From: Candidatus Hadarchaeota archaeon | Lineage (GTDB): Archaea; CAYQAE01; CAYVLA01 | Length of the DNA stretch: 64,000 bases | Direction of reading: 5' to 3' | Assembly (NCBI GenBank): GCA_964621445.1 | Contig: CAZUNO010000002.1 | Location: 13,640 to 77,639, forward strand | In this document: positions 37,158 through 64,000 of the stretch, in pieces | Layout of the letters: each line of letters begins with the position of its first letter | Numbering within the stretch: position 1 is the stretch's first letter | Translations under genes and position numbers: made by a program | The notes under the pieces: model-generated | Databases searched by the model: none | The model's input: only the letters and a program-made list of their open reading frames with translations | Told to the model about the DNA's origin: nothing

Positions 37158-39577
37158 AGATCCTCGATTATCAGGGGATGAGCTGGGTCAGTGATTAACC
37201 ACTGGGGCAATCCCTTGTCAAGTGTAATGATCTCATAATTATCGGATTTATGCATCAGTATCTTCCAGAACCCCGGTTTGGATTCCCCCCGCGAAATAAG
37301 GATATGGGAAGATGACCCATGAACCTTGGGATTTTCCAAGCACCCCATATGCTCCTCATCCGGGGAAAAGACATCGGCTTTAGCTCCACTCTTGCCAAGA
37401 ATCAGGTTGAAGCTCTCCGTCCCTTCCGGTACGTGGAAATATAGGGGCAAATCTTCATCAAGGCACCTCCCATCCAGATCCAAGCCGTGAGGTGGAACAT
37501 GGAAAGCCATCCAAGCACCGTTAACCCTCATTTTCTCCAAGGCTGCCATACGGTACGGAGCTCTAAGAAAATAGACCTTGTTTGCCTTTCCCTGGAAGGT
37601 AATTGACCTTCCTTCGGCCACCATCCCGGTGTCAATCGATTTGCCCTTTTCATCTGTCAACACGTATTGTATAAATTCGGCCCTTCTATGGAATCTCTCA
37701 ATTTTGATCTTGACTGCTCCTTCGGACGAGCTGTATAGAAGCAAATCAATTCCACCCCTGCCCACTGGTACCAGGCAGTCCCTTGGACCTGTCTCACCCC
37801 CTATGGGCGGACTCTCCGTCACCGCCAACTCAGGGGGTTGAAAATCGATCTTTCTGGTTATCCTACATCCCTCTCGCTGATTTGCAAGAAGCTCATCGAT
37901 CTCATCCTCATCGAGGGTCAAAGGTGATTGGTAATCTGGCGGCAGGAAGCCGTAATCACGGAGGTTCCATTGGAGAAGTGACAAAACATGGCCAAAGATA
38001 TCCAGCCTTTTTTGTTGACTTGCCTTCTTCTCCACGGATAAGGCATCGAGATAGCAGCTCTCGATCTCTGGATAGAGGGGGGCATATAACTCCTCCAAAT
38101 GCCTCTCGGTGAGCAGGTATTTTGCACCTGAATTGCGGTTATAGAACCGAGAAAAGGCCCTATCGAGGAGACCGAAGAGTCTCTCCACGGATTTCCCTGC
38201 TTCATAACCATAGGCCTTCAGGTAATATTCGTGGAGTATCTCCCTCGCATCCTGGTCCGGGTTCCATAGCAGTCTGGCAATGGTATAGTTACCGGGACCA
38301 GAAACGGGCCAGACTGGGTTACCGTAGATATATCCTCCCTTGAAGCCATATTTAGACATATTTGAGAAGGTCGACTTCAGAAGCTCCGGTGACGGGGGGC
38401 ATATTATCCCATTTGGTTGCACCAGGGTCGTCGGCAGATCATAGTAGTAGATATCGAAGCCGTGTTTTCTTGATAGTTCACTCCAATCTCCCCATATGGA
38501 TTCGTCCCATCTTTGCTTGACCGAAGGACGATAGAGCCTGAAACCATAGGCAGGGCTATTGGGGATCACAAAGGCCAAGTTGGATTCAATATCCATTTCC
38601 TCGGAAGGCGGGTAACGATAATTCGCATACAGGTAACCCCCCAGCATGTGCTTCGGGAACTCCTTCTCCACAATCCGGGCCACATCGTTATAGAATTTCA
38701 AAACCAAAGGAGTAACCGAAATTTCACCATGGGGGTCAATTTCCTTAAGTGCCCCCGACTCCGGACTCTCGCTCCATGCCCCACCGTCGGCCGGTGATAG
38801 CGAGTACCACCGCCTTTTTGGATCCTCTCGAAATGCCTTGATGATTTTTTCGGCGAAATATTGGACCATCTCCTGGTTCGTGGTCTCCAGCTTGTAGTAT
38901 CGACCTATGGGCGGAACCCGATTTCCATCCCTCATGGCAAACCAGTCTGGGTGTTCATCGTAAAGAGAGGGAGGAACCGTCCTTATCCAACTATGATTAT
39001 GCTCGATTGGGCAGACCTGGTGCAATTTCATGCGCTTATCCCATTCGTCCTCCAGAGGGGCTTTGTCTCTAAACGAAATAACGCGGTAATCAAAGGGTGG
39101 ATGGTCTTCCCGGTCCATTTCGGGAATCACCAAATCTCCCATTTCCGTATATTCCTCCCCCATCTCACCCGGCATTAGCCATCGGACTTCTAGATATTCC
39201 TCAATGAATGAATACACTCCATTGGAAGTACCATGATTCACTCCTCCCTTGTCGTTAAGCTCCCCATCTGGCGTGTCGGGACCTAGAATGAAGAGATTGG
39301 AATCGAGAGCTACAATTCTGTAGCCATCAATGGGAATCTCCGAAGGGTCCAGCCCCTCTTCCCTGGCTGCGGCAGTGTAACCCAAACTGATATACGGATT
39401 GGAAGGTGGCTGCTCGGTGGATATAACCTCGGGTAAAGCTCCAGTCACCTTTCCAAAATAATTCCTTAGGTCCTTAGCCGCATTCCTTACGGATTCAGGA
39501 GCGGTTGGATCCAGGTAAATTGAATAATTGGTCTTTCTGTTCCGGACAATCGGGATTGATCCTCTTCCGGACTTCAA
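37154..39577 (-). CDS. DUF4838 domain protein (second, larger paralogue); no signal peptide
   Basis: GTSNGVYSFIEEYLEVRWLMPGE and overall colinearity with the N-terminal half of the 30751..32652 product. Its end overlaps the convergent sulfatase stop by 4 nt. Confidence 0.7.
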   Translation of the reverse strand: MKSGRGSIPIVRNRKTNYSIYLDPTAPESVRNAAKDLRNYFGKVTGALPEVISTEQPPSNPYISLGYTAAAREEGLDPSEIPIDGYRIVALDSNLFILGPDTPDGELNDKGGVNHGTSNGVYSFIEEYLEVRWLMPGEMGEEYTEMGDLVIPEMDREDHPPFDYRVISFRDKAPLEDEWDKRMKLHQVCPIEHNHSWIRTVPPSLYDEHPDWFAMRDGNRVPPIGRYYKLETTNQEMVQYFAEKIIKAFREDPKRRWYSLSPADGGAWSESPESGALKEIDPHGEISVTPLVLKFYNDVARIVEKEFPKHMLGGYLYANYRYPPSEEMDIESNLAFVIPNSPAYGFRLYRPSVKQRWDESIWGDWSELSRKHGFDIYYYDLPTTLVQPNGIICPPSPELLKSTFSNMSKYGFKGGYIYGNPVWPVSGPGNYTIARLLWNPDQDAREILHEYYLKAYGYEAGKSVERLFGLLDRAFSRFYNRNSGAKYLLTERHLEELYAPLYPEIESCYLDALSVEKKASQQKRLDIFGHVLSLLQWNLRDYGFLPPDYQSPLTLDEDEIDELLANQREGCRITRKIDFQPPELAVTESPPIGGETGPRDCLVPVGRGGIDLLLYSSSEGAVKIKIERFHRRAEFIQYVLTDEKGKSIDTGMVAEGRSITFQGKANKVYFLRAPYRMAALEKMRVNGAWMAFHVPPHGLDLDGRCLDEDLPLYFHVPEGTESFNLILGKSGAKADVFSPDEEHMGCLENPKVHGSSSHILISRGESKPGFWKILMHKSDNYEIITLDKGLPQWLITDPAHPLIIEDL

Positions 39578-43475: not shown

Positions 43476-45224
43476 TCAGGCGAATTCGATATCCACTATC
43501 TGGCCCTGTTCATTGAACGTCGCTCTGAAAATGGCCACATCGCTCGAGAGCTCCTCTCTGTATTCCTCCGCATCCCCCTGCAGAATCTTCCATAATACCT
43601 TCACTGATGTCTCTATCCCCCTACGCCCCAGTCCCCCGACCGCCAGCCGCTGGCCCTTTCCGTGCTCGGTGTAAAGGCATAGGTAACCCCAGCTGGAGGC
43701 ATTACCTCCCAACTTTGGAATGCCGGTCTTAATCTCCTCAAGGGAGGCTTCCCTCCCCGGCGACATGGCTCTAAAGCGAAGCCGGCCAGAAGATTCGGAT
43801 ATTTCTAGACGACCCTCCTGTGATATATAGCCGGAAACGAAGTTTGCATCAGGCCCTCCCATCCCTATCACATCACGGTACGTGTGCTGGGAATCCAGGG
43901 TGTATCTACCACCTGTTTTTGATGCCACTTGGCTATGGTTAAGAACTCGCACTTCAATGCCCTGGTCGCTAATTATATCACTGGTTTCATTCCCCCAGAT
44001 CTCCAGCTCGGATGCAGAGACAATACCCGTCGTATTACCACCATAGGTAATCTCCGTTACATTGCCCAAAAGGTTCCCGAGATGAAACAGGTCAACATCA
44101 AATTCCAGGTTTACCGAGCGCAATACCTGCCTCTTGCTTTCATTCGCAACCCAATACTCCGCGGCGAGAACGATACTTTCGGAACCCTCTGGTGAGATTT
44201 CAGCAACGGCCTCAAGCTCCCTCAGTTCACCTGGCCCCAGACTATCAACGGTGATGTTGCCGGATAACAATTGGGCGCCACCACTTTGCTTGTATAGGTT
44301 GATATTTGACACCGAACCCGTTCCTTGATTCCATATCCCAATCGGTATGGCGGCGGTATAGTTACCATTCGGGGAGGGATGGACCTTTGGGGAGGTATCC
44401 AAAGCTAGCGCCTGTAGTTCCGCCTGCACTATATCCCCTGATACCCAGCGCACCATGTTTAGCAAAAATTGGTTATTATCAAACGAGTTTAAAAATCGGC
44501 TGCTCCAGAGATCATTGTCACCTATACAAGCTATCCTTCCCTTTCCGTAGGTCGAGATGGCGGCTATGGTCTTTTTTCCCGTATCCTCGTCATCGTCAAG
44601 TTCCAGATCACCATCGGTGTCCGCCCATGATTCCTCTGAAGTCCAGGCCACGGGAGAAGCATTTCCGGAGGTCTGCAATGAACATCCCGCGTGATAACTG
44701 ATACGATCCAAACCATCGGTCACCTCATCTCCGGAGAATGCATCTATCATTGGCCAATGTGCATATCTGGAATCCGAGATAAAGGGATTATTCGGGTCGC
44801 AAATGGTATTTCTCTCAAAAATTATACCAAACTCCGAGGTTATCTCGTTCACCCTTTCACGGGCCCATGGCTGATACTTTGAGCTCGAACCCTGACCAGC
44901 GATAATCATGCCGTTTCCCTCGGACACGTAATCCAGAAGCATATCGATGTCATTGGACAGGCTACCACCATCCCTTGGCGTTATTAACAGTACGGAGACC
45001 AGATCCGTCAGGTTATCCGGATGAAGTTTTTGCACGCCGGTATAGGGACTTAGCAAGTGGGCCCTGAAGCCTATTTTATCAAATGATACCGCGGCATGCC
45101 AGTAATCATAAATGCTGAGCTGTTCCTCCATATGAGTCTCTATAAAGGCAGCAGTTGGTTTTTCAACCGAGGAAATTGGCACAGCCGAGAATATAATAAC
45201 CAGCAAGATCAGGCCGGAAATCAT
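43476..45224 (-). CDS. Extracellular GldG/DUF4350-like (GATase1-fold) protein with a C-terminal Ig/CARDB-like region
   Basis: TM/signal segment MISGLILLVIIFSAVPISS. I used the start at 45224; the track start at 45326 would overlap ileS by 83 nt. LLITPRDGG...LLDYVSEGNGMIIAGQG and GKGRIACIGDNDLWSSRFLNSFDNNQFLLNMVRWVSG match the GldG/DUF4350 pattern. Confidence 0.65.
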   Translation of the reverse strand: MISGLILLVIIFSAVPISSVEKPTAAFIETHMEEQLSIYDYWHAAVSFDKIGFRAHLLSPYTGVQKLHPDNLTDLVSVLLITPRDGGSLSNDIDMLLDYVSEGNGMIIAGQGSSSKYQPWARERVNEITSEFGIIFERNTICDPNNPFISDSRYAHWPMIDAFSGDEVTDGLDRISYHAGCSLQTSGNASPVAWTSEESWADTDGDLELDDDEDTGKKTIAAISTYGKGRIACIGDNDLWSSRFLNSFDNNQFLLNMVRWVSGDIVQAELQALALDTSPKVHPSPNGNYTAAIPIGIWNQGTGSVSNINLYKQSGGAQLLSGNITVDSLGPGELRELEAVAEISPEGSESIVLAAEYWVANESKRQVLRSVNLEFDVDLFHLGNLLGNVTEITYGGNTTGIVSASELEIWGNETSDIISDQGIEVRVLNHSQVASKTGGRYTLDSQHTYRDVIGMGGPDANFVSGYISQEGRLEISESSGRLRFRAMSPGREASLEEIKTGIPKLGGNASSWGYLCLYTEHGKGQRLAVGGLGRRGIETSVKVLWKILQGDAEEYREELSSDVAIFRATFNEQGQIVDIEFA

Positions 45225-45243
45225 CCGCCTCCTCCAAATCACT

Positions 45244-48200
45244 CTAGGGAGCCCTGATAGAGATACGATATTCATCACCCTCCAATTGCCAGCTCTTTTG
45301 ATATGACTCCTCCAATCCACGTCCAAAACTCAGCGATTTAGCCCTTGTCTCGGTGGATATATAATCCTCATAATCGGCAAGCCTATCCAGGCCAGGACCA
45401 TCCACTGCCACCTCGATGAAGTCGTCAACATCAAGATCCATATCCTTTCTCATATCCTGGACTCGCCTCACTATCTCCTTGGCCATGCCCTCGCGTTTTA
45501 AATCCTTGCTGAGCCTGCAATCAACGACCACGGTTCCAGAGGCGAATTCGGAATCCGAATAGTACTCAGGCATCTCCTTTTCAAAGGATACATGTTCAGG
45601 GCGCACCCGGAAATCCCTCTTTTCGGTGTGCAAGATGAAATAATCCTGTTCGTCAAAGGCCTCCTTCACTTCCTTAGGATCCGAATTCAGCAGCCCATCA
45701 ATTACCCGGTTTGCATCGGATCTAAACTCCCTCCCAATACTTGGGAGCTCTGGTTTTATCTCCAGCACGGATTCCACTTCATCCACACACTCAACCGACT
45801 TGCAGTTCGTCTGCTCCGTAAATACCCTATCCAGGTCCCGAAGGGCTTGCTTTACCTCCTGATCCTCGGTTTTCACCATTATCCTGCCCACCGGCTGTCT
45901 GAGCTTTATCCCTGCCCTCTGCCTAGCCGCCAGGGAGGATTCGACCAGTGATCTAACGATCGCCATGGAACCTTCGAGACTTGAATCGGTCAGGCCCTCA
46001 TCGGCAGCTGGCCAGCCCTGGAGATGAACGCTATCCGGCGTCGAGGAGCTCCTAACCAGCTTCTGGAAGATCTCTTCCGTTATATGTGGGGTTATGGGTG
46101 CCATGAGTCTCAGGAGGCGTTCGATTGCATAGTGGAGGCTGAAATAGCAGGCCAGCTTGTCAGGATCCTCGGACTCTATCCAGGTTCTATCCCTGGCCAG
46201 TCTGACGTACCACCTGCTGAGGTCGTCCAGGATGAATTTCTGGAGATCCCTGGTGGCATGCAGAAAATTCATCCCATCCAGGGACTCGGTCGTGCTCTCT
46301 ATGAGCGAGTTAACCCTCGATATGAGCCAACGGTCCTCCGGTCTCAGGTGGCCCTCGACCCGCGAGGCTTCAAAATTCCGGGGGAATTCATCCAGCTCCA
46401 TGTAGGTGGAAGCAAAGACGCAAACGTTCCAGAAGACGTTGATCATGCGCTGTATGGTGGTGAGTTCGTCGAAATTAAACTTCAGGTCCTCCCAGGGAAG
46501 GGTAGCCCATAGCAGGTAGTACCTGAACACATCTGCGCCAAACCTATCCACCACATCGTCGGGGTCAACTGCATTTCCCAGAGATTTGGACATCTTCCTG
46601 CCCTCGGCATTGAGGGAGAATCCGTGCATCAACACCTTTCTATAGCAGGATTCATCGAAGGTTATCACGCTCGCCGCCTGAAGGGAATAGAACCACTTGC
46701 CTACCTGATCTGACCCCTCCATGATGAGATCAGCCGGCCATATGGACAGGGCATCTGGATCTGAAGGGTAGCCAAGGGAACTCCAGGACGCTATCCCCGA
46801 ATCGAACCACACATCTATTATGTCTGGGATCCTTGTCATCCTCCCTCCACATTCGCATTCCAGTTCTATTCTATCTACGCTGGGCCTGTGAGGATCGAAA
46901 TTATCGGGATCTATCTCCGACGTGGAGAGCGAAGCCAGCTCCGTATATGACCCCACCACGGTCATCTTCCCGCAATCGCCACATATCCAGATTGGCATTG
47001 GTATTCCCCAATACCTGTTTCTGGAAAGACACCAGTCCCCTGCATATTCCACGCCGTTCTCATATCTCTCGGACACCCAATCGGGTACCCAATCTACATC
47101 CCCATTCTCCTCGATTATCCTGTCCTTTATCTTGCTTATCTCCAGGAACCATTGTTCCCTGGCCATGAAAAGCAGGGGCGTCTTGCATCGCCAACAGTGA
47201 GGATAGCTATGTTTAATTATTCCCTCGTGGACGTAATAACCGCTTGACTTAAGGTCCTCTATCACCAGGGGGTCGGCATCCTTTACGTACATGCCGTTGT
47301 ACTTGCCGCCCTCTTCGGTGAATCTACCGCCGGCGTCCAGGGGCGAAAAGATCGGTGCCCCTACCTCGCGGCCTACCTCAAAGTCCTCCTCACCATGTCC
47401 AGGTGAGGTATGAACACAGCCGGTTCCCTCCTCGAGATCGACGTATTCCGCCAGGACCAGTCGGTGAAATTCATCCGCCCACTCCCCTTGCTTCGGGACC
47501 TGCTCCAGAAGCGGGTGTTCATATTGGAGACCCTCCAGTTCCGTTCCCGGCATGGTCTCCAAAATCTGGTAATCTTCTATCCCCGTCTGCTCCATAACCC
47601 TTTCCACGAGCTCGGAGGCCATTATCCACTTCTCATCCCCCACCAATACCCTGGCATACTCGAAATCGGGCTTTACCATAACCAATAGGTTTGAGGGAAG
47701 TGTCCATGGAGTAGTGGTCCACACCAGGACGTATTGGTCTGTAGCGTCCCTAATCTTGAATTTGATATAGATGGATGGATCCTCTCGGTCTTCATAAGCC
47801 CCCCTGACCTCATGTTCAGCTAGAGCCGTCTCACAGCGAGGGCACCAGTGCACTACTCTTACATCCTGAACCAGCAGGCCCTTTTCATAGGCCTTCTTTA
47901 TGGTGTCCCAGCCGGCCTCCATGTACTTGGAATTGAATGTGACGTAGGGATCGTCCCAATCCATCCACACGCCAAGCCTCTTAAACTGATCGGTCATGGT
48001 CTTCAAGTGGCTCTGGGCATAACTCTTGCAGGCATCGATGAACTTTTCGACCCCAACCACGTCCTCGATATCCTTCTTGCTTTTCAGATCGAGTTCCTTC
48101 TCCACCTTAACCTCGATGGGAAGTCCATGGGAGTCCCATCCAGGCTGCCTCCTCACGTTCTTCCCCTTCATTGATAGATATCTGAGCACCGCTCCCTTGA

Positions 48201-53176: not shown

Positions 53177-53560
53177 CTACTTATTGAAATCCAGGTCAAC
53201 ACCACAATCCGGGCATTGCCCTCCGTAAGAGCCAAAACAAATCTTGCAGAGGATCTTGCCGCACTCCGGACATGTGAAGTACCCCCTCTTCATGGAGGTC
53301 GTTCCACAAACCGCGCAGGAAATGGTCTCCTTCTCGAAATGTTCAAGATCAATGCCGCAATCGGGGCAATTCAGATCGTTCTCCTTTGCACACTTCTCGC
53401 AAAGCATCTTCCGGCAATATGGACAGCGATAATAACCGGTCTCTGGTAAGGGGGTCTCACAAAGGGCACATACTCTTTCTTTGGCCAATGGTTTCACCTG
53501 GGCTAGAGATATTATTGTCACCGGATCCCTCTCCTGACTTAATAATATATCCGTAACCAT
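53177..53560 (-). CDS. Duplicated 8-Cys zinc-ribbon protein (hypothetical)
   Basis: Two colinear modules: CALCETPLPETGYYRCPYCRKMLCEKCAKENDLNCPDCGIDL and CAVCGTTSMKRGYFTCPECGKILCKICFGSYGGQCPDCGVDL. Confidence 0.6.
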   Translation of the reverse strand: MVTDILLSQERDPVTIISLAQVKPLAKERVCALCETPLPETGYYRCPYCRKMLCEKCAKENDLNCPDCGIDLEHFEKETISCAVCGTTSMKRGYFTCPECGKILCKICFGSYGGQCPDCGVDLDFNK

Positions 53561-54351: not shown

Positions 54352-54948
54352 GTGAAGATAATGCTTAAGATAGAGAGGCAAAGGGAGACGAAGGAGACGG
54401 ATGTATCCATTACCATGGATTTTGATGGATCCGGAAAATCCTCGATAAGTACCGGACTACCCTTCTTCGACCACATGTTAACCTCCATGGCCAGACATGG
54501 AAGGATAGACACCGAGATAGATGTTGAGGGGGATCTTGATGTAGACGACCATCACGTTACCGAGGACGTGGGAATAGTTCTCGGCGAGGTGATCCTGCAG
54601 GCCCAAAAGGAAAGACCCTCGATCCGACGCTTTGGGAGCGCCATAATACCCATGGATGATGCGCTTATACTCATGGCCATTGACCTTGGGGGCCGGACCT
54701 ACGTGGATCTAAAGGTCGACTTCAAGAAGGAGTATGTCGGAAGCTTCGTCCTGGATAACATCAAGCACTTCATGAGATCGATGGCCGATACCGCCTACAT
54801 GAATCTCCATGCACACAAGTTATCGGGCAGCGACGATCACCACCTGGCGGAGGCACTATTCAAGAGCCTGGGAATAAGCCTCTCCCAAGCCCTGAAAAAG
54901 GATCCCTCACTCTCCGGAGAGATTCCCAGCACCAAGGGCAGGATCTAG
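54352..54948 (+). CDS. hisB: Imidazoleglycerol-phosphate dehydratase
   Basis: RETKETDVSITMDFDG, TGLPFFDHMLTSMARHG, DLDVDDHHVTEDVGIVLG, GSDDHHLAEALFKSLG. It begins immediately after the hisA stop. Confidence 0.9.
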   Translation: MKIMLKIERQRETKETDVSITMDFDGSGKSSISTGLPFFDHMLTSMARHGRIDTEIDVEGDLDVDDHHVTEDVGIVLGEVILQAQKERPSIRRFGSAIIPMDDALILMAIDLGGRTYVDLKVDFKKEYVGSFVLDNIKHFMRSMADTAYMNLHAHKLSGSDDHHLAEALFKSLGISLSQALKKDPSLSGEIPSTKGRI

Positions 54949-55610
54949 GACGCTTCATTTCTTAGGGCTTTTAGGATAAGGAAAATGGCCACCCTTATCC
55001 CGCACCACACGGTAACCCCCCGCACGTACTTTTCATACTTTACCGGTACCTCCTTTACCCGTAGACCCTTGCGCCTCGCCTCGTACAGCAGCTCCGACTC
55101 TATCTCGTACTGGTTGGCGGTTAGGTCCATTCCTTCAAGAGCCGAGGCTCGTATGGCCTTCAACCCGCTCTGGCTATCCCTGACTGGGTTTCGAGTAATC
55201 GCATTGGTCAGCTTGGTAAGTCCCCAGTTCCCGATCCTCATGATAAGGGGCGCCGAATCGAAATAATTGACCCGGTTTCCCAGAACTATGTCCGCCTCGT
55301 CATTGAGGATGGGCTCCACCAGGTTGGGGATGTCACTCGGGTAGTGCTCGCCATCACCGTCAAGCCTTAGAATGATCTCGGCGTCGTATTCCTCCGCTTT
55401 CTCCAGCCCTTTCCTGTATGCTGATCCAACTCCCTGGTTCCTATCGATCTTGAACACCTTAGCCCCTCCCGCAGTCGCCTCCTGGGAGGATAGATCGGTG
55501 CTCCCATCATCGATCACTATAACGTTGTCCACATACTTTGAGGCCTCACGGGCTATTTCCTGAATGGTTTTCTCCTCGTTGTGGACCGGGATCACGCAAA
55601 TGGTCTTCAA
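54945..55610 (-). CDS. Family-2 glycosyltransferase, polyprenyl/dolichyl-phosphate sugar synthase-like (DPM1/ArnC-like)
   Basis: VIPVHNEEKTIQEIAREA, VIVIDDGSTD, LRLDGDGEH (DxD-type), a short C-terminal hydrophobic helix, and 221 aa. Confidence 0.8.
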   Translation of the reverse strand: MKTICVIPVHNEEKTIQEIAREASKYVDNVIVIDDGSTDLSSQEATAGGAKVFKIDRNQGVGSAYRKGLEKAEEYDAEIILRLDGDGEHYPSDIPNLVEPILNDEADIVLGNRVNYFDSAPLIMRIGNWGLTKLTNAITRNPVRDSQSGLKAIRASALEGMDLTANQYEIESELLYEARRKGLRVKEVPVKYEKYVRGVTVWCGIRVAIFLILKALRNEAS

Positions 55611-55658
55611 GTATAATCCCTTACCGTTTGGCTTGAAAGATATCCCGAAAATGCCACC

Positions 55659-56360
55659 TCATTTTCTACTCCAGGCAGCGTCTGGTCCCTCATCCACTAT
55701 CTTTCCATCAACTATGACCAAACCTCTCTTGCAATGCTTAAGAAAGTTGGGATCATGGCTTACCGTGATAATGGTTACCCCCAGGTCCTCGTTTACCCTT
55801 CCCAGCAGCTCGTAAACCCTTTCCGATGACCTCGAGTCCAGATTTCCGGTCGGCTCGTCCGCCAGAAGTATTTTTGGATTATTCGCCAGTGCCCGGGCTA
55901 TGGCAATTCTCTGTTGTTCCCCACCGGATAGCTGATCAGGCTTATTTAAAGCCCTCTGCTTGAGCCCGATCAACCCAAGCAATTCGCTGGATCTACTGCT
56001 CCTGGACTGGCTATCCTTACCTGATAGGACCATGGGGAATTCGATGTTTTCAACCGCGGTTAGGGTTGGTATGAGATTATATGACTGGAATACAAATCCA
56101 ATGGTGTGCAGTCTAAGATCCGATAACTCGTCATCGGAAAGCTGTGAGGTATCGCGTCCGAATATCTCTACCAGTCCCGAATTTGGTCTATCCAGACAAC
56201 CCAAAACGTTCAGAAGGGTCGTTTTTCCGGACCCGGAAGGGCCGGAGACTAACACGAAATCAGCTTCATCTACACTCAAGCTTACTTCTAGGAGCGCTTC
56301 CACCTCGATTTCGCCCGCTTTGTAGATTTTTCGCACTTTACGAGTCTCTACTGCCTTCAA
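55659..56360 (-). CDS. ABC transporter ATP-binding protein, MacB/LolD/FtsE-type
   Basis: VSGPSGSGKTTLLN (Walker A), FQSYNLIPTLTAVENI (Q-loop region), LSGGEQQRIAIARAL (signature), ILLADEPTGNLD (Walker B), TVSHD (H-loop). Confidence 0.9.
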   Translation of the reverse strand: MKAVETRKVRKIYKAGEIEVEALLEVSLSVDEADFVLVSGPSGSGKTTLLNVLGCLDRPNSGLVEIFGRDTSQLSDDELSDLRLHTIGFVFQSYNLIPTLTAVENIEFPMVLSGKDSQSRSSRSSELLGLIGLKQRALNKPDQLSGGEQQRIAIARALANNPKILLADEPTGNLDSRSSERVYELLGRVNEDLGVTIITVSHDPNFLKHCKRGLVIVDGKIVDEGPDAAWSRK

Positions 56361-56416
56361 TTTGGCCCCTCAGGGAGCTGGGAAACCCTTTAAAAGTATT
56401 CTGATAAATATTCCCC

Positions 56417-57568
56417 ATGGCCGAGGCCCAATCGATCTGGAAGATGGCCTTTAGGAACCTCTCGAATCAGAACAAGACCACTATACTAACAGTGGCGGCC
56501 ATAGCAGTCTGTGTGATGACCTTTGTCTCCATCTTCTCAATCCTCGACGGCCTCCAGTTGTCCGTTGAGAAGGTAATTAGAGGCTTCTACGGGGAGGAAG
56601 GTAGAAGTGCATATGTACTTCCCGCTTCGGATGAAATCGAACAGGGACTTATACCCCGTGCGGTGGCCGAGGAATATAGAGGACTTGATGATGTATACGG
56701 CCTTTCCGAGGAGGATGTGGTGAATTCTTACTACCAGGGAAGAGAGGTGGACCTTCTCGGAGTTAATCTGGATGACCTTGACGCCACCCACGGATTCCAG
56801 GGAATTGATGGCAGGAGCATGGAGAAGGGACCGGAATGCATGGTGGGCTCCACGGCCGCCGAAATACTTGGCATAGATGTCGACCAAGAGATATCATTGG
56901 AACTGGATGACAGCACCGTCGACCTTTTGGTTACGGGAATATACGAGGCCAAGACGTCCCTCAATGCGAATATCCTGGTGAATAACGAATTCCTTTCCTC
57001 CAGAATTCCCCGGTTTAAGGTCAATACCTCCATGCTGCGTATTAAGCTCAAGACGGGAAACCTGGAATCGGTAGCCGAATTCACCGAGGAAAACCACCCC
57101 GAACTCAGAATCAAGGAATCTGTTCAGGTGAGCAAGTTCTTCCAGAAATCCATCATAAACATCTCCCGCCTTCTCAGCACCATCATTATTTTCGTTATAC
57201 TGCTGATGGTCCTTGGTATATACAATTCAATGAACATGGTGGTTTCGGAGCGAAAAAGGGAAATTGGGATAATAAGGGCTATGGGAGCCAGGAGGTCCTT
57301 CATAGTCAAACTGTTCATGGCCGAAAGTACTATGCTTTCACTTCTAGGGGGCTTATTCGGGGTCGGGTTGGGAATAGCCATGTCGCATGGAATCACATCG
57401 ATCTTTTCCATCTTCGTTGCCGGTTCCTCATCTGTCGCTCCCCTCACCAAGCTCACCACCATTGGCTGGGCCATGTTTGCCTCCCTGTCGATAGGGCTAA
57501 TTGGAGGAATTTCCCCGGCAAGTAATGCCTCCAAGGTGGAAATCTCAAGAGCCCTCACGGAGGTGTGA
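56417..57568 (+). CDS. ABC transporter permease, FtsX/MacB-type (TM1, periplasmic-core-like domain, FtsX TM2-4)
   Basis: MAFRNLSNQNKTTILTVAAIAVCVMTF, an extracytoplasmic domain of ~210 aa, then SERKREIGIIRAMGARRSFIVKLFMAES...LIGGISPASNASKVEISRAL. Confidence 0.85.
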   Translation: MAEAQSIWKMAFRNLSNQNKTTILTVAAIAVCVMTFVSIFSILDGLQLSVEKVIRGFYGEEGRSAYVLPASDEIEQGLIPRAVAEEYRGLDDVYGLSEEDVVNSYYQGREVDLLGVNLDDLDATHGFQGIDGRSMEKGPECMVGSTAAEILGIDVDQEISLELDDSTVDLLVTGIYEAKTSLNANILVNNEFLSSRIPRFKVNTSMLRIKLKTGNLESVAEFTEENHPELRIKESVQVSKFFQKSIINISRLLSTIIIFVILLMVLGIYNSMNMVVSERKREIGIIRAMGARRSFIVKLFMAESTMLSLLGGLFGVGLGIAMSHGITSIFSIFVAGSSSVAPLTKLTTIGWAMFASLSIGLIGGISPASNASKVEISRALTEV

Positions 57569-60500
57569 ACATAGAGAGCCGTCTTCTCCATGCCATGAAG
57601 ATATTTCCTCGTCACAGAATGTGGCTATCCTTAGCCGGGATAATGGTATGCGCCATTCTCTTCTTCGGGGTGCTCTCCGTGGTTCACTGGCTTAGCTATT
57701 CCTCAACCTCCTACTTCGGAGAGCAAGAGGGCATATACGTACTGGCGCAGGAGGAGGCGGCCACCGTCAAACAATCACAAGTTCCCCTCGCCCTGGCTCC
57801 GGCACTAACCAGGATGAATGGAATCCAGGTGGTTTGCCCCGAACTCTTCATATATGGGGTGTTAAATGATAAGGCTGTCATAATCCGTGGGATATTCCCA
57901 TCGGATTTCCAATCACTTGAACCGGTCACCCTGATTCAAGGGCGGTGGCTCAGGGACGACGATATCAAGGCCGCCGTGGCTGGCCAGAATCTAGCCCGAA
58001 AACTGGATCTGAAGGTGAACGATACCTACCTGCTTTCAGGATCCGAGGTTGATGACTTCGTCAGGATCAGGATCGTGGGCATCTTCAAGGGAGGGGGAAT
58101 GATTGATGACGACCTACTCATGAACATACACTACGCCAGGTATCTCCAACAGGAAACACAACCCGGTTATGCCTCAATAATCCGGGCCAAGGTCAACACC
58201 ACCATCTGGCCCAGCGTAGAAAGCATCTGGCAATCGGTCAGCGGACTTCCCAATATAACGCCGCTCCAATATGAACCAACTGCTCCCAACAACACCCAGA
58301 GACTGCATTTCACCTGCAATGCCACAGCTCATACCGAAGTGGGCTCGGTCATACTCTACTACAAAAAGCAGGGTCTCCATCGCACAATCCAAAAGACCAT
58401 GATAAAGGGAAATTCAAGTCAGTTTAGGACCCAGATCGGCCCTGTGAAGGACTCCTCATGGGTACTTTGTTGGGCCAACGCCACTGATATTTTGGGCCAC
58501 GATCGACGGACGCCTGAGGTTAACATCTCAATAACAGATGCCCTGGGACCGGACATATTCGATCTGACAATTGAACCGCCCCCGCCCCAGACAAAGGATC
58601 ACCTGGTAAACGTCTCCTTCAAGGTATTCGATACAAGCGAAATGGTCAGGAACGTAACCGTCCACACATATAATGTTGGACTTAATCGTACATTCCACGG
58701 AAAGGACTCCACGGGGCGGGCTTACGAGCTAACCCTGGGAAGGTTTGAACCGGGACCATTGACCCTTTGGATATCCGCCCGGGATAGATTCGGCAATCTG
58801 GCACGAACGGCTCGATACAGGTACAGGATCCTCAATAGGACCGATCAATCCCCTCCCGAAATAGGTGAGATGGTATTCGAGCCTGACCCCCCGAATGACA
58901 ACTCCACCCTGACCGTGAACGTTCCAATGTTCGATGACTCAGAGATCGTTACCGCCGACCTTATCTATGACTATCAGGTCAAGGGCATTCACTACAATGG
59001 GACCCTTAAGATGAATAGAAGCCAGGCCCAGGAGGGCCTTTGGGAAGCGGTAACCGGTTCCTTTCCGGGTGCCACAACGATTCATTTCAGGATATTCGCC
59101 AGGGACCAATTCGGGAACGCCGTATACTCGGAGACCAGGGATGTATTCGTGAGATACTCGGAGCCACCGGAGGAGCTCCAGGTCTACAGATTCCCCCAAT
59201 ATTCCACTCCCGGCCTCAATAATCTGGTATTCGCCGTTCTCTACGACGCGGCGGAGATCCAGGAGGTCAACTTCACCTTCGTGGAAGCGGGTAGATGGAC
59301 CAACCTCTCCATACCCGTGGGGATAACTACCTTTAGGGAACCCTTTCTCCTGGGGCGCCTATCAACCGGGTTCAAGGAATATAATCTCTCCATGGAGGAC
59401 AGGCGGGAAGAGGTGACCAGATATCCAGGACAGGGACTGGAAGGGTTCCTTGTTCAGCGAAAAAGACCCCACATAGAGGATATACAGTATTCCTCGACTG
59501 TAAGGAAGGGCTTTCCCCTAATGGTGACCTTCAGGGCAGTCGGCGTCTTCCCACTAAGCGAGGTATATACCACCGACTCCAGAGGGGTAGTGGAAAAATG
59601 CGAAAGGATTGAGGGTGAATATACCGCGATCCTGGGTCCATACTCCAAGCCGGGTGACTACTCCTTCAGTATAACTACCCAGGACTGGGCGGGCAATACA
59701 CGGACCATTGAAGACCGGGAATTCACCGTAGAGGAGGAATCGATAACCGATATCGACTTCACGCCAAAACCGCCCATTCTGGGAGAGGAGCTAACCGTGA
59801 CCTGTAGGGTGATCGGGGACTCTCCCCGCAAGAAGGTCCGGCTCATAGCACCTGTGGGCGGCAAGTACGTGTTGACTCCAATGGAATTGGAGGAGGGGAG
59901 GAGATTCGCGTCCATACCCATCGATAGCCCTGGTATTCTACCCTTCTCGGTACAGGTCGAGGATGGAGAGGATCTGATACGCTCAAAAACCGTACGGCTT
60001 AACGTCGGTTCCAACCACTCATCATTGTACCTGGCTCACAGCCCACCCCATCCTCTGAGTACCCAGAATATAACAATCTCCATCTTTGCCAGGTCGGGTC
60101 ATAACCTGAAATCGCTGGAACTGGAATGGAAAAATGGATCCCACGAGATTCCACATCGCAAGGTCTGGAGGCTAGAGGGGACGGAAACGAGATTAGACTT
60201 CAAACCGGGAAGGCAAATAGAGGGGACCCTTCTTTACAGGGCAATTCTTACCACTGAAATGGGTAGCCTTACCTATCCCCTGACGGAGGACGAGTGGCTC
60301 GGGATCTCCATCACCAAAAACCTGTTTACCCCCCCGGAAATTGGAAGATTATCCCTATCCCCCCAGACTTACGTGGGACTGGATGGGAACAGGGGACAGG
60401 ATTTCCTTGTTGAGGTCGGTTGCCCAATTTCCTTTGACCAGGGTATATCCTCGGTTGAGATAGATTACGTGGTAGACCAGAGAACCTATAACGAGCCACT

Positions 60501-63500
60501 CCTACCGGTTTCCCGGAAATACGGGCTCTCCTCAAGGTTTTATTCAGCCTATCTCGGTCCCTTCCCCACCAACGAGACCATAAGTTGTCAGGTCACTGCC
60601 AGAAGCATCTCGGGATTGGAATCCTCCACCCCGGAGGTGAGCTATGTCCTCCGGGATACGGAACCTCCGGAGATACAGGATATATATCACGACCCCCTAC
60701 ACCCTGAACCCAAAAAGGAAATAACCATTGGGTGCGAGGTAACCGATGACTCGGGTGTCAAGGACGTTTTGCTGCTGTACGGCGGCAATGGCACCCAAAA
60801 TGCAGAGCGCATGATGCGGTACGGAAATACCTACACTCTGGACCTTCTCTCCCCGCCCGCGGGCGAATCCCTCACCTATGCAATACAGGCCACGGATAAC
60901 TACGGCAACAGCAACCAGTCCTTGCCGGGTACCGTTACCTCTAGGGACGAAACCCCACCCGATATATGGGAGGTCACCCATGACCCGCTGGAACCAACGG
61001 ATAATGACAGCGTCAACATAACCGTCCGACTCATCGATCGGCAGGATGAAATCGAAAACGTGACCCTACTCTGGTACCAGTACACCTGGAAGAACCAGAC
61101 CAAGAAGGGGGGCAGCGGGTACATTACCAGGGTATTCCAGATCGATGCCTCTGAGTTTGACCCGGGAATGAACGTACGGTACAAGATCGAGGCCTTTGAC
61201 CGTTCGGGAAACAAGGCGGTCTACCCCAACGTAGAGCAGGGAGAAACGCCTCCTTCTCCACTTCTCTATGGCGATAATCCTAATTCCCTGAGACAGGAAG
61301 CATGGGAACCCTATCTCACCTTCCGGGTTGTCGACAGATCCCCTCCCGTTCTCACCCTTGATGCCCAGCCCGAAAGTCCAAATGAACTTGAAACCGTTAC
61401 CTTCGAGGTGTCAGCGGAGGACAATCACCTTCTCAGGAACTACACGCTTCACCTATGGGTGTCAGGGGTTTACAGGCCTTTCAGCGAGCAGGTAGGTCGT
61501 CCTAGCTTCAGGGACGAGTTCTCCTCCGGTCCCCTAGAACCGGCATCCACCATAGTTTGCTATCTTGAGGCATACGACAGGTCCGGTAATTATGCCCGGT
61601 TTCCGGCTCGCTCCAACCTTACCATAGATGTGGAGAGGTTCGAATGGGGAGGCGAGATGGCCGCCGTCGATCCCAGGGTTGACCTTGAAGTCGCCGGCCC
61701 GGCCGGTTTTTCTCAGGGAATGGCCAGACAGGGAGCGGGAAAGATAATCGCCAGCATAAATGGCATCCTTTTCATGACCTTTCTGGCCACCGTGGCCGGC
61801 ATCGGCAATATAGTCTACACCTCGGTTTTCAAATCGAAGAGGGAAATAGGCCTGGTCCGAACATTAGGGGGGAGCAAGAAATTCGTCACCCTTCTGGTGG
61901 CCTCGGTTACCGTCCTGCTGGGCCTGACCGCTGCCTTGATCGGGTGTGTAATTGCCTACCTGCTGATAACGGTGTTTTCTAACCTAGGAGCCTCCCTTGC
62001 CTGGGTCACCTTGAAGCCCACATTCAATATCCTTATTCTGGCAGCGACTTCAGCGGCCGCGGTGACCATTAGCCTCTTCGGTGGAATGGTAGCCCTTACC
62101 AGGCTTTTTTCATATACCCCTGTGGAATCGATAAGGACGGTGACCGCGCCCCAAGCGAAGAGGGAGCATCCAACCTACATCGAGAATACAAGGCGTTTCC
62201 CCGCAAAGACCATCGCCGTTTTACTCCTCATCACCATTAGTGCCGCTGCCATGATGCGCCTATATCCTACATATATCTCCGAGCAGCCCTTCGATCCCGA
62301 TTCCTGGTTGCACCTAACCGCTGCATCCGATATGCGGGAGACCGGCCATCTGAGACTCGATTACGCTTCCCGGGAAATGCAGGCGGTCAGCGCCCTCCCT
62401 GGCCTCAACATCCTGCTGGTCGTATCCCAGGTATTGACCGGGAGCGAGATGATCCCAGCGAGGATCATAACCCCCATCATATCATCACTTGGCTTGATCC
62501 TGGCCTTTGTACTGGCCAGGAAACTCTCCAGGAGCGATATCGTGGCAGGAATGACCGCGATCATACTGGCAGTGGTTGGCTTTTATGCCAACCGAACGGC
62601 AGCGCTTACCAAGGAGGCCCTCGCACTCCAGATGCTCCTACTCTGCCTCTACATGTTATACCTAAGCCACATCTCCAGAAGCACCAAGCACAAGACTCTG
62701 CTAGTTGCCATTTCCGTTGCCCTGATGCTGACCCATCACCTAACGGCCATCTATTTCATGCTGATTTTTGTGGGATACATCTTTCTGAGAATCTTCCACA
62801 AGTATTCCCAGGGTGTCATCGACCCCCTGGAGGTCAAGCAGGATGCCCTAACCGGTCTTGGGGTCCTAACCAGCTATCTTATCATCAGCTTCACCCTGGG
62901 CAAGTACGAAACTCCGATACCATTCCAGGACTCCCTTCTGATAATATCCCTGTTCTTCGTGACCATCGGATTCGGAAGAATTTTGCTTTCGTCATCATTC
63001 TTGGGCCAGCACCGGAGATCTATATCCCTGGTCGCAGCCCTGGGTACGGTTACCTTCCCCTTCATCGCCTACCGCGCCGGGCTCTTCTCCTACGCACCAT
63101 GGGAACAGGTCCTCCCCATGATAGCCCCCCACTTGTCCCTTCTGGCCATAGCGATCCTGGCCCTGTTCCCGGTCTCCCTGCTCTCAGAAAATCGAAAGTC
63201 CTTCATCTTGGCCTGGGCCTCTGCCGTGATTCCCTTCCTATTATTTGGACTTGTCAAAAGGGATATCTTCGGCTACATACTGCTCTTCAGGAACATCTCA
63301 TACGGTTATCAACTATCGGCCATATTGGTAGGCATCGCCTTCGTCTATGCCTACAAGCGTTTCGAGGCCGGAGGTCAGGATGGAATCCGCACCGGGCTGG
63401 TTGCCATAGCCGCGGTGCTCCTCATGACCAACCTTCTATTCGCCTCCCACATGGGTTTTCTGTCCCGCCCTTATGAGAAGAAGGACCTATACACGACCAC

Positions 63501-63861
63501 GGAGTTCAACGCGGCCTTGAAGGTGAACCAATCAACCCTAAGAGGTCAGCTGGTAGGGTCGGACGAACGTGGTCGCCGGCTTCTATTGTACGTAACTGGG
63601 GAGGATGGAGACCAGATCACGACCTACGTCTATATGATCAGGATGGAAAAATGGTTAATAAACAGGCTTAACGAACAGGTCAACTTGACCGAGAAGCCGC
63701 TGACCCATATCCTCACCTATGACGAGATGTTTGAGGTCGGTTTCGTGGATCAGGTACTGTTCAAGGATGTGGAAAGGCTAGAGCTCAATCGATATGAGGA
63801 CGTCATTCTGGACAACGGCGGTGAACACCTCATTTACGTGGCCAGGAAGGAATGGCCGTAG
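57565..63861 (+). CDS. Giant (2098 aa) fusion protein: an FtsX/MacB-type permease interrupted by ~11 Ig-like repeats and fused at the C-terminus to a 13-14-TM GT-C-like (ArnT/PMT-like) glycosyltransferase domain
   Basis: It is one continuous ORF, and its GTG start overlaps the upstream stop (GTGTGA). The N-terminus is TM1 plus a MacB_PCD-like domain (IIRGIFPSDF...AVAGQNLARKLDLKVNDTY...IVGIFKGGG). Nt ~58200-61640 hold ~100-aa repeats. Nt ~61740-62140 hold the FtsX TM2-4 (SKREIGLVRTLGGSKKFVTLLVAS...). From nt ~62200 there is a polytopic domain whose first external loop is EQPFDPDSWLH. Confidence 0.85.
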   Translation: MNIESRLLHAMKIFPRHRMWLSLAGIMVCAILFFGVLSVVHWLSYSSTSYFGEQEGIYVLAQEEAATVKQSQVPLALAPALTRMNGIQVVCPELFIYGVLNDKAVIIRGIFPSDFQSLEPVTLIQGRWLRDDDIKAAVAGQNLARKLDLKVNDTYLLSGSEVDDFVRIRIVGIFKGGGMIDDDLLMNIHYARYLQQETQPGYASIIRAKVNTTIWPSVESIWQSVSGLPNITPLQYEPTAPNNTQRLHFTCNATAHTEVGSVILYYKKQGLHRTIQKTMIKGNSSQFRTQIGPVKDSSWVLCWANATDILGHDRRTPEVNISITDALGPDIFDLTIEPPPPQTKDHLVNVSFKVFDTSEMVRNVTVHTYNVGLNRTFHGKDSTGRAYELTLGRFEPGPLTLWISARDRFGNLARTARYRYRILNRTDQSPPEIGEMVFEPDPPNDNSTLTVNVPMFDDSEIVTADLIYDYQVKGIHYNGTLKMNRSQAQEGLWEAVTGSFPGATTIHFRIFARDQFGNAVYSETRDVFVRYSEPPEELQVYRFPQYSTPGLNNLVFAVLYDAAEIQEVNFTFVEAGRWTNLSIPVGITTFREPFLLGRLSTGFKEYNLSMEDRREEVTRYPGQGLEGFLVQRKRPHIEDIQYSSTVRKGFPLMVTFRAVGVFPLSEVYTTDSRGVVEKCERIEGEYTAILGPYSKPGDYSFSITTQDWAGNTRTIEDREFTVEEESITDIDFTPKPPILGEELTVTCRVIGDSPRKKVRLIAPVGGKYVLTPMELEEGRRFASIPIDSPGILPFSVQVEDGEDLIRSKTVRLNVGSNHSSLYLAHSPPHPLSTQNITISIFARSGHNLKSLELEWKNGSHEIPHRKVWRLEGTETRLDFKPGRQIEGTLLYRAILTTEMGSLTYPLTEDEWLGISITKNLFTPPEIGRLSLSPQTYVGLDGNRGQDFLVEVGCPISFDQGISSVEIDYVVDQRTYNEPLLPVSRKYGLSSRFYSAYLGPFPTNETISCQVTARSISGLESSTPEVSYVLRDTEPPEIQDIYHDPLHPEPKKEITIGCEVTDDSGVKDVLLLYGGNGTQNAERMMRYGNTYTLDLLSPPAGESLTYAIQATDNYGNSNQSLPGTVTSRDETPPDIWEVTHDPLEPTDNDSVNITVRLIDRQDEIENVTLLWYQYTWKNQTKKGGSGYITRVFQIDASEFDPGMNVRYKIEAFDRSGNKAVYPNVEQGETPPSPLLYGDNPNSLRQEAWEPYLTFRVVDRSPPVLTLDAQPESPNELETVTFEVSAEDNHLLRNYTLHLWVSGVYRPFSEQVGRPSFRDEFSSGPLEPASTIVCYLEAYDRSGNYARFPARSNLTIDVERFEWGGEMAAVDPRVDLEVAGPAGFSQGMARQGAGKIIASINGILFMTFLATVAGIGNIVYTSVFKSKREIGLVRTLGGSKKFVTLLVASVTVLLGLTAALIGCVIAYLLITVFSNLGASLAWVTLKPTFNILILAATSAAAVTISLFGGMVALTRLFSYTPVESIRTVTAPQAKREHPTYIENTRRFPAKTIAVLLLITISAAAMMRLYPTYISEQPFDPDSWLHLTAASDMRETGHLRLDYASREMQAVSALPGLNILLVVSQVLTGSEMIPARIITPIISSLGLILAFVLARKLSRSDIVAGMTAIILAVVGFYANRTAALTKEALALQMLLLCLYMLYLSHISRSTKHKTLLVAISVALMLTHHLTAIYFMLIFVGYIFLRIFHKYSQGVIDPLEVKQDALTGLGVLTSYLIISFTLGKYETPIPFQDSLLIISLFFVTIGFGRILLSSSFLGQHRRSISLVAALGTVTFPFIAYRAGLFSYAPWEQVLPMIAPHLSLLAIAILALFPVSLLSENRKSFILAWASAVIPFLLFGLVKRDIFGYILLFRNISYGYQLSAILVGIAFVYAYKRFEAGGQDGIRTGLVAIAAVLLMTNLLFASHMGFLSRPYEKKDLYTTTEFNAALKVNQSTLRGQLVGSDERGRRLLLYVTGEDGDQITTYVYMIRMEKWLINRLNEQVNLTEKPLTHILTYDEMFEVGFVDQVLFKDVERLELNRYEDVILDNGGEHLIYVARKEWP

Positions 63862-64000
63862 GTGCTTGTCTTGGAGAGATCTTTGGCCATCAGAGTAGAC
63901 ATCGACACCATCAAGGGGCTCTTGGATGGGGTCCCCATTCTACTGGACATGTTCGACGACCTGGGAATCCAGGCCACGTTTTTCGGCTGTGTGGGGCCGG
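63862..64000 (+). CDS. ArnD-like polysaccharide deacetylase/deformylase; only the N-terminal 46 codons are present and the gene runs off the window end
   Basis: Manual translation from GTG 63862: (V)LVLERSLAIRVDIDTIKGLLDGVPILLDMFDDLGIQATFFGCVGP. It is strikingly colinear with the N-terminus of E. coli ArnD as I remember it ([38 protein letters not shown]). Confidence 0.6.
   Translation, partial: MLVLERSLAIRVDIDTIKGLLDGVPILLDMFDDLGIQATFFGCVGP

Follow-up and report, generated by a model that had tools for sequence, protein, structure and literature searches.

A conserved fusion of an FtsX-type permease with a predicted GT-C glycosyltransferase domain in Hadarchaeota

In a 64,000-nucleotide stretch of a Candidatus Hadarchaeota genome (assembly GCA_964621445.1, contig CAZUNO010000002.1, positions 13,640 to 77,639; hereafter the window), we describe a 6.3-kb gene whose product joins an FtsX-type permease of the ATP-binding cassette (ABC) class, type VII, to a C-terminal domain predicted to have the GT-C glycosyltransferase fold. 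The fusion is intact in independent assemblies and recurs in a second, more distant lineage. It stands in a compact cluster with an ABC ATPase, another FtsX permease and genes resembling those that make lipid-linked sugars. That the type VII ABC and GT-C machine forms one unit with these supply genes is a view to which we give about even chances. To our knowledge, the Hadarchaeota are uncultured archaea of the deep subsurface whose envelope biology is essentially unknown.

The cluster lies at the end of the window in two divergent units. On the minus strand, the ATPase gene (55659-56360, 233 aa) is followed after 48 nucleotides (nt) by a GT2 glycosyltransferase gene (54945-55610, 221 aa). On the plus strand, the permease gene FtsX1 (56417-57568, 383 aa) leads into the giant FtsX::GT-C open reading frame (ORF; 57565-63861, 2098 aa), whose GTG overlaps the TGA of FtsX1 (gag GTG TGA). 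The candidate starts of the giant ORF are this GTG at 57565 and an ATG at codon 11. Directly after its TAG stop, a GTG at 63862 opens an ArnD-like gene of family CE4, whose 5′ part (63862-64000, plus strand) runs out of the window at its end. A reading of this DNA made earlier from the letters alone (the sequence-only reading) had named all of these genes, and the ORF map finds each of them in place, including the GTGTGA overlap.

Results

The giant protein joins an FtsX permease to a GT-C-fold domain

The first 230 residues of the giant protein (57565-58254, plus strand) comprise a short cytoplasmic N-terminus, transmembrane helix 1 (TM1, residues 22-40, from the hydropathy profile) and a MacB-like extracytoplasmic core domain (Pfam MacB_PCD 8e-13 over residues 20-198). 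The permease resumes at residues 1390-1523 (61732-62133, plus strand) with TM2-TM4, for which Pfam FtsX (8.7e-9 over residues 1401-1518) and hydropathy agree, and closes with the C-terminal PVESIR motif of the family, conserved in both fused lineages. A basic linker of about 25 aa (residues 1524-1548, 62134-62208, plus strand; RTVTAPQAKREHPTYIENTRRFPAK) then separates FtsX TM4 from the first GT-C helix. The remaining residues, 1549-2098 (62209-63858, plus strand), contain about 13 TM helices and a C-terminal outer domain of about 130 aa.

Sequence searches returned no family for this last domain: it has no Pfam match even at E ≤ 10, none in NCBIfam and no phmmer match against the PDB. A profile of 69 family sequences likewise gave nothing significant against the PDB, where STT3 appears only at E = 4. 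The same 69-sequence alignment was needed for a usable AlphaFold2 model (pLDDT 80.6, pTM 0.86), as an alignment of 7 sequences gave a pLDDT of 51. When the model was compared with the PDB by Foldseek, the top 27 matches were exclusively GT-C proteins (probability 1.00, E 3e-9 to 1e-2, TM-score 0.4-0.59). The best were STT3 (E 3.4e-9, TM-score 0.59), AglB (6.8e-7) and PglB (1.9e-6), followed by DPY19 (6e-6), ArnT (3.7e-5) and then ALG9, AftA and Pmt4. By its predicted structure, the C-terminal third of the giant protein therefore qualifies as a GT-C-fold domain, as the sequence-only reading had proposed. That reading had also likened the domain to ArnT and had named PMT_2, GT39 and GT83 as profiles to try. 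None of these profiles matches, and the domain falls into an unannotated family of its own whose nearest structural neighbours are oligosaccharyltransferases.

Two family memberships were considered and rejected. Orthology with AglB/STT3 was set aside as the domain has neither a WWD nor a W.D.G (WWDYG) motif and no STT3 match in Pfam or NCBIfam, and membership of ArnT/PMT_2 (GT83/GT39) as there is no profile match. Among the 69 family relatives, PMT_2 matches 2 (best 2.6e-5) and PMT matches 1. An hhalign comparison of the family loop-1 sequence WGSDxGEYY with WQPDETRYAE of E. coli ArnT gave E 8e-4 at a probability of 24%, and covers TM1 to loop 1 only. This alignment and the weak links of a few family members to PMT_2, PMT and DUF6541 are consistent with the GT-C fold.

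Close homologues of the GT-C domain are few, and an exhaustive profile search extended the family to 1242 relatives (clustered at 50%). Nearly all are stand-alone proteins of about 560 aa without Pfam domains, and those that carry a name in cluster look-ups are called 'hypothetical protein [Thermoplasmata archaeon]'. A word-indexed protein search with the broad GT-C profile returned the close family alone, and no names. The domain is best described as belonging to a new, unannotated archaeal GT-C family.

Several polar residues stand out in this family. In the first outer loop, the motif D1577-P-D1579 (62293-62301, plus strand) offers D1579 as a candidate catalytic or metal-binding Asp: its column is kept in 67 of the 69 family members and pairs with the loop-1 D/E of ArnT in the weak hhalign alignment. 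The surrounding DxD-type sequence FDPDSW is a signature of the fused subfamily, invariant in both fused lineages. H1724-H1725 (THHL motif; 62734-62739, plus strand) are near-invariant (67/69 and 68/69) and R1909 (63289-63291, plus strand) is invariant (69/69); these three residues may bind phosphate or metal. All of them, together with the tail residue D2000, are near-invariant in the family and retained in the window protein.

The end of FtsX TM4 is cytoplasmic, and so is the start of GT-C enzymes, whose TM1 runs from inside to outside. It follows that the GT-C active-site loop would lie outside, beside the FtsX ectodomains, and the linker is predicted to be cytoplasmic from the positive-inside rule together with these known topologies. 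The fusion thus appears topologically coherent.

The fusion is conserved in two lineages

The giant ORF contains zero stops in four orthologous loci from independent assemblies (L004, L006, L007 and L016). The junction between the FtsX part and the C-terminal domain is also continuous in the protein P0001 and in L002 upstream of a frameshift in that locus. Five sequences of 2095 aa, drawn from several sources, fall into one 90%-identity cluster with the full-length orthologue P0007. Among orthologues the GT-C part is 55-69% identical, above the Ig-like array described below (48-60%). At the level of sequence, these comparisons confirm that the FtsX::GT-C fusion is real and under selection.

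The gene is broken in two short metagenomic relatives, by a run of N at L001:4364-4479 and by the frameshift at L002:~3400, inside the GT-C part. Since gene callers split the giant protein at those breaks, the database entries P0002 and P0003 look like stand-alone fragments.

The whole cluster is conserved in related genomes (L004, L006, L007 and L016), as the sequence-only reading required. Its nearest relatives among genomes are metagenome-assembled genomes (MAGs) labelled Candidatus Hadarchaeota and one labelled 'uncultured Thermococci archaeon'. Syntenic loci occur in GCA_964478645.1 and in other MAGs (contigs CAYVLA010000003.1 and CAZJVP010000088.1). A narrow-alignment scan of a genome collection yielded 3 loci, and a metagenome scan only 3 further close ones; with so few loci found, the fusion-bearing family is rare in the scanned collections.

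A second fused lineage (L011/L005; proteins P0034/P0173) encodes a shorter FtsX::GT-C fusion of 1120 aa, 30% identical to the window protein and with an insert of about 260 aa. In L011 the divergent layout of the ATPase and the FtsX1-FtsX::GT-C pair is kept, again with overlapping stop and start, and FDPDSW, NRTAALTKE and THH are motifs common to both lineages. The neighbours of this core in L011 are a sulfatase, a phosphodiesterase, an RHS protein and a DUF1616 protein. As the trio of ATPase, FtsX1 and FtsX::GT-C is kept in a lineage only 30% identical, we consider it the conserved core; and as this core recurs without an adjacent GT2 or deacetylase, the coupling of ABC and GT-C is the robust novelty of the system.

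One ATPase gene accompanies two different permeases

The ATPase matches Pfam ABC_tran (4.8e-31), and its best NCBIfam models are LolD (4.9e-68), the MacB nucleotide-binding domain (4e-67) and FtsE (4.5e-62). Because all these scores fall below the equivalog cut-offs, the protein is not an orthologue of LolD, MacB or FtsE singly. The catalytic motifs are intact: GPSGSGKT (Walker A), LSGGEQQR (signature), LLADEPT (Walker B-Glu) and SHD (H-loop). Profile matches place the protein among ATPases of the predicted LolD/MacB/FtsE (type VII) kind.

FtsX1 is an ordinary MacB/LolC-type permease with TM1, a periplasmic core domain and TM2-4 (Pfam MacB_PCD 4.4e-11 and FtsX 3.8e-17; NCBIfam lolCE 1.8e-19, below cut-off). 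In both permeases, MacB_PCD and FtsX exceed the Pfam gathering scores and the hydropathy profile agrees. The Pfam and NCBIfam matches bear out the earlier description of a MacB/LolD-type ATPase encoded with two different FtsX permeases in a tight, divergent layout.

A sequon-rich ectodomain is inserted in the second permease

Into the outer domain of the second permease is inserted an array of about 1150 aa (residues ~225-1360, 58237-61644, plus strand), made of about 11 tandem homologous immunoglobulin (Ig)-like modules of about 100 aa each, with recurrent PPxI...DxxGN motifs. Self-BLAST of the giant ectodomain found no repeats; profile-profile comparison based on orthologue alignments was needed and showed the modules to be homologous to one another (probabilities up to 97.5%, E 6e-12). 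Matches of the array to Big_13, PKD and He_PIG are weak.

The array contains 30 N-x-S/T sequons compared to 8.5±2.6 in shuffled sequences (maximum 18 in 2000 shuffles). It is also the fastest-evolving part of the protein, the 48-60% identity given above comparing with 74-85% for the FtsX TM part. Fast evolution and an excess of sequons are as expected of an exposed, N-glycosylated surface structure, and the ectodomain is likely to be a heavily N-glycosylated one. Given its sequons, it may in turn be acted on by the fused transferase.

The flanking genes resemble a lipid-linked-sugar pathway

The GT2 protein matches Pfam Glycos_transf_2 above the cut-off (3.4e-25). Its top NCBIfam models are AglJ (8.5e-35), PpgS (3e-26) and a haloarchaeal dolichyl-phosphate (Dol-P)-hexose transferase (3.5e-20), all below equivalog cut-offs, with ArnC at 2e-8. 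Identity to E. coli ArnC is 26% (E 9e-12), and among the orthologous loci the protein is 78-81% identical. Its best models, AglJ, PpgS and the Dol-P-hexose transferase, agree with the earlier assignment to the polyprenyl- or dolichyl-phosphate sugar synthase type, which we retain as a prediction.

The 46 codons of the CE4 gene present in the window have a single match, NCBIfam ArnD (8.8e-9). Its orthologues are 266-272 aa long, and a full-length one (L004:10800-11618) carries Polysacc_deac_1 and DUF2334, matches ArnD at 9.7e-29 (100 bits against a cut-off of 382; next CE4 model 6.6e-7) and shares 29% identity with E. coli ArnD over 279 aa (E 2e-25). The earlier label of an ArnD-like gene thus holds for the fragment and the orthologue alike. 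On these scores, the gene is predicted to encode an ArnD-like deacetylase or deformylase that is not an ArnD orthologue. Because the protein has no signal peptide and no TM helix, it should act in the cytoplasm, like ArnD.

In the Hadarchaeota-like loci, the gene order is hisA, hisB, GT2 (minus), ATPase (minus), then divergently FtsX1, giant, CE4 and a GT4 gene. Beyond GT4 follow a 125-aa four-helix protein (minus), an archaeosortase (minus), a membrane protein of about 290 aa (minus), a nucleoside-diphosphate (NDP)-sugar dehydrogenase and a tRNA endonuclease. The starts and stops of the giant, CE4 and GT4 genes overlap or abut in all orthologues. As GT2 in turn trails the ATPase by 48 nt, the GT2, CE4 and GT4 genes are probably co-transcribed with those of the machine.

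The part beyond the window end, L004:12766-16224 (also in L006, L007, L008, L014 and L016), is a conserved continuation of the cluster. Its archaeosortase has ArtC as best model, below the cut-off, its membrane protein of about 290 aa has no family, and its dehydrogenase is UDP-ManNAc-dehydrogenase-like. By their predicted functions, these genes hint at a link of the machine to the anchoring of sorted surface proteins.

No flippase of the GtrA, SMR, MATE or Wzx type was recognised in the cluster, and neither ArnA and ArnB nor a homologue of ArnE/F was detected there. The 125-aa four-helix membrane protein is conserved downstream in all orthologous loci, outside the window, and its homologues are lineage-restricted. 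Its EamA matches are non-significant (E ~0.5), and it shows no ArnE/F similarity and no PDB match.

The sequence-only reading had placed an Arn-like pathway in one cluster with the ABC machine. GT2 and CE4 do adjoin the machine within one lineage, but not in L011/L005. The link to Arn-like supply genes is plausible from gene order and supported within one lineage only; since the synteny there includes housekeeping genes and the second lineage has no GT2 or CE4 nearby, it is not independently confirmed.

Discussion

A possible mechanism and its alternatives

Based on the gene content, we propose that FtsX1 and the giant permease would form a LolC/LolE-like heterodimer powered by a dimer of the ATPase. 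On the cytoplasmic face, the GT2 of the Hadarchaeota-like lineage would load dolichyl phosphate with a sugar, probably an N-acyl-amino sugar, and the signal-less ArnD-like CE4 would de-acylate it there. After translocation, the GT-C domain would pass the sugar to an acceptor on the cell surface, perhaps a glycoprotein or a glycan; the machine's own sequon-rich ectodomain could be among them. By analogy with LolCDE and YbbAP-TesA, the most plausible role of the ABC part would be that mechanotransmission by the FtsX pair extracts a lipid-anchored substrate, donor or acceptor, or positions it for the fused GT-C. ATP-driven control of glycosylation is what we infer from this arrangement. That the ABC mechanotransducer specifically uses ATP to extract, or even move across the membrane, either a lipid-anchored acceptor or a dolichol-linked sugar, handing it to the fused GT-C, strikes us as rather unlikely.

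Several observations weigh against a single machine with its own sugar supply. The basis of the GT-C assignment is a structure prediction, with TM-scores of ~0.5-0.6. The fused subfamily is substituted at outer-loop Gly and aromatic positions that the family otherwise conserves (G54D, G58W, G79S, G81E, Y85V and W254T), so it may depart from the stand-alone enzymes in substrate or even in activity. Both the heterodimer and the mechanotransmission are features that we infer purely from gene order. GT2 and CE4 adjoin the machine in close relatives only, where synteny also spans hisA/hisB and the tRNA endonuclease, and they are not adjacent in L011, which represents the sole more distant lineage with the fusion. 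Finally, the 125-aa protein could be the real donor flippase, leaving the role of the ABC part open.

The alternative that survives best is that the neighbourhood is coincidental. The machine would then function on its own: the genes on its flanks (GT2, ArnD-like, GT4 and sugar dehydrogenase) would belong to a general surface-glycan or agl-type N-glycosylation island, and the GT-C would use another dolichol-linked donor. We regard this as possible, though doubtful. It accords with the second fused lineage, which keeps only ATPase-FtsX1-FtsX::GT-C, and with the genomic contexts of the stand-alone GT-C homologues, which are mostly housekeeping; moreover, where synteny in Hadarchaeota reaches as far as hisA/hisB and the tRNA endonuclease, adjacency says little. 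Nevertheless, the abutting or overlapping stops and starts of the giant, CE4 and GT4 genes argue against coincidence, as does the position of GT2 48 nt after the ATPase on the same strand, which implies co-transcription. The combination of GT2, ArnD-like protein and GT-C is in addition a recognised functional triad, that of the textbook Arn pathway.

A second alternative assigns the ABC part the role of donor translocase, with the FtsX heterodimer and the ATPase moving or extracting the Dol-P-sugar to the outer leaflet for the fused GT-C and so filling the 'flippase' slot. Type VII ABC systems are described as having no transmembrane substrate path and as acting on outer-leaflet or periplasmic substrates, and the small four-helix protein is still a candidate flippase; we consider this role unlikely. 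Speaking for it, no known flippase type is recognised in the cluster, the 125-aa protein is not significantly ArnE/F- or EamA-like, and the covalent fusion suggests substrate channelling. Systems of three components, a polyprenyl-phosphate glycosyltransferase (PPGT), a flippase and a GT-C, are a general model in which the family of the flippase differs from system to system and proof of it is rare (PMC11127046), which leaves room for such a translocase.

Alternatively, the GT-C-fold domain may be non-enzymatic, anchoring the protein in the membrane, sensing a lipid (dolichyl phosphate) or acting as a scaffold, within an FtsEX-like regulator of surface-layer assembly or a BceAB-like sensor. FtsEX and BceAB provide type VII precedents that regulate or sense rather than transport, and the substitutions of several stand-alone-family residues in the fused subfamily would fit. 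We find this improbable given that D1579, H1724, H1725, R1909 and D2000 are retained, that FDPDSW is invariant across lineages only 30% identical, and that the GT-C domain is better conserved than the ectodomain. Lastly, the idea that the 6.3-kb ORF is an assembly join or gene-calling artefact uniting a permease gene with a separate GT-C gene could appeal to the L001 scaffold gap and the L002 frameshift within the GT-C part, but it is effectively refuted by the ORF being intact in the window and in four related assemblies of independent origin, by the five 2095-aa sequences of the P0007 cluster, by the continuous junctions of P0001 and L002 and by the shorter fusion of the second lineage.

Relation to known systems

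LolCDE extracts lipoproteins. Like it and other type VII ABC systems (MacB, FtsEX, BceAB), the machine described here has an ATPase of LolD/MacB/FtsE type, and like LolCDE it has two non-identical FtsX-fold permeases with MacB-like outer cores and one ATPase gene for both. It differs in being archaeal and in a second permease that carries an Ig-like array of ~1150 aa and a C-terminal GT-C. Furthermore, no partner of the LolA/LolB or EnvC type is found here, and the LolC/E and LolD scores are below equivalog cut-offs.

On the outer side of the cytoplasmic membrane, where GT-C enzymes act, no ATP is available. Type VII ABC systems are the known means of carrying ATP-derived mechanical work across a membrane without passage of a substrate. 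A precedent for pairing such a system with an enzyme is YbbAP-TesA, in which a type VII ABC transporter presents membrane lipids to its partner hydrolase TesA (PMC12646458). There too, transporter and enzyme are physically coupled, the enzyme acts on hydrophobic substrates derived from the membrane, and the transporter is proposed to extract and present them. However, TesA is a soluble periplasmic hydrolase bound non-covalently, whereas the enzyme here is an integral-membrane glycosyltransferase on the same polypeptide, and the two enzymes have no sequence relationship.

In common with the ArnC/ArnD/ArnE-F/ArnT pathway, which modifies lipid A with aminoarabinose, the cluster encodes a GT2 of the polyprenyl-phosphate sugar synthase type, an ArnD-like CE4 predicted to be cytoplasmic and a GT-C with a loop-1 Asp. 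In contrast to that pathway, the GT2 is nearer to AglJ/PpgS than to ArnC, and the GT-C is not of the GT83/PMT_2 kind and is structurally nearer to STT3 than to ArnT. No ArnA/ArnB or ArnE/F homologue is found here, and archaea have no lipid A acceptor. Three-component systems (GtrA/GtrB/Gtr*) similarly encode a lipid-phosphate sugar synthase together with a GT-C for glycosylation at the outer face. The present cluster departs from them in having no recognisable small flippase, in the fusion of a type VII ABC module to the GT-C and in an extra de-acylation step.

The best structural matches of the GT-C domain are the GT66 enzymes AglB, STT3 and PglB (TM-score ~0.55-0.59, E 3e-9 to 2e-6), with which it shares 13 TM helices, a C-terminal outer domain and a DxD-like loop-1 motif (D1577-P-D1579). 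Unlike these enzymes, it has no WWDYG motif and a much smaller outer domain (~130 aa), and sequence identity is 11-15%. In the AglD/AglS-type step of Haloferax, a GT2 makes Dol-P-mannose and a multi-pass transferase transfers it outside. That step is likewise an archaeal pairing of a GT2 Dol-P-hexose synthase with an outer-face, Dol-P-sugar-dependent transferase that decorates surface glycoproteins, but it is not known to include an ABC module or a deacetylase.

All components of the machine are thus of known kinds, and a non-covalent precedent exists for a type VII ABC system paired with an enzyme. Full-text literature searches found no paper that describes an FtsX–GT-C fusion and none that combines FtsX, GT-C and archaea, in agreement with the sequence-only reading, which knew of no such system; searches for work on glycosyltransferases of Hadarchaeota yielded nothing useful either. 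The conserved combination of FtsX and GT-C appears to be undescribed; rarer bacterial FtsX–GT-C fusions may exist.

The conserved covalent fusion of ABC and GT-C suggests that glycosylation or surface assembly at the outer face can be energy-coupled or gated. If true, this would be the first extracytoplasmic glycosyl transfer gated by cytoplasmic ATP, and a candidate answer to the question of how Dol-P-sugars get to the outer face in some archaea. With the giant protein, communication between FtsX helices and a partner enzyme could also be studied within a single chain. In addition, the analysis uncovers a sizeable archaeal GT-C family that has no Pfam model or annotation.

Additional features of the locus and the window

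The divergent intergenic region between the ATPase and FtsX1 (56361-56416) is 56 nt long. Over five orthologous loci its mean column identity is 87%, with GGAAA..CTTTAAA invariant, and it is better conserved than most of the coding DNA on its flanks. It contains a palindromic TATA-like box, CTTTAAAAG (~56388-56396), about 25 nt from the FtsX1 ATG and about 30 nt from the ATPase TTG. The invariant palindromic TTTAAA could serve both directions of transcription, and the spacer is compatible with a shared archaeal B recognition element (BRE)/TATA element and leaderless transcripts. A scan for sigma-70 promoters and terminators, which has little meaning in an archaeon, gave counts at shuffle level.

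A large secreted protein is encoded divergently ahead of each of the closest stand-alone homologues of the GT-C domain, P0008 and P0006, and its two copies are orthologous (L012:6488-9718 and L003:3-1961, both on the minus strand). The L012 protein is complete, with 1076 aa, a signal peptide, a C-terminal TM anchor and no Pfam match on record; the L003 copy breaks off where its contig ends. This protein could be an acceptor. The divergent arrangement is seen in one lineage only.

Neighbouring genes mark the window as archaeal, namely those of RadA, an RPA-like OB-fold protein and IleRS together with hisA and hisB. Three sulfatases (7304-8698, 11598-13019 and 35535-37157) occur together with domains of unknown function that resemble glycan-degradation proteins: DUF4838 at 30751-32652 and 37154-39577, DUF5696 at 873-3056 and DUF3604 at 9141-10619. 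Judging from these families, the first 40 kb of the window suggest a sulfated-polysaccharide utilisation island. Directly beside the ATPase of the second fused lineage are the sulfatase and the phosphodiesterase (L011:1016-3808).

Adjoining IleRS is a 616-aa DUF4350/ABC_transp_aux protein (43476-45326, minus strand), an auxiliary component of an uncharacterised ABC system that is unrelated to the fusion. Upstream of hisA lies a small C1_2/double-zinc-ribbon protein (53177-53560, minus strand), which keeps its position in the orthologous loci at 67-78% identity.

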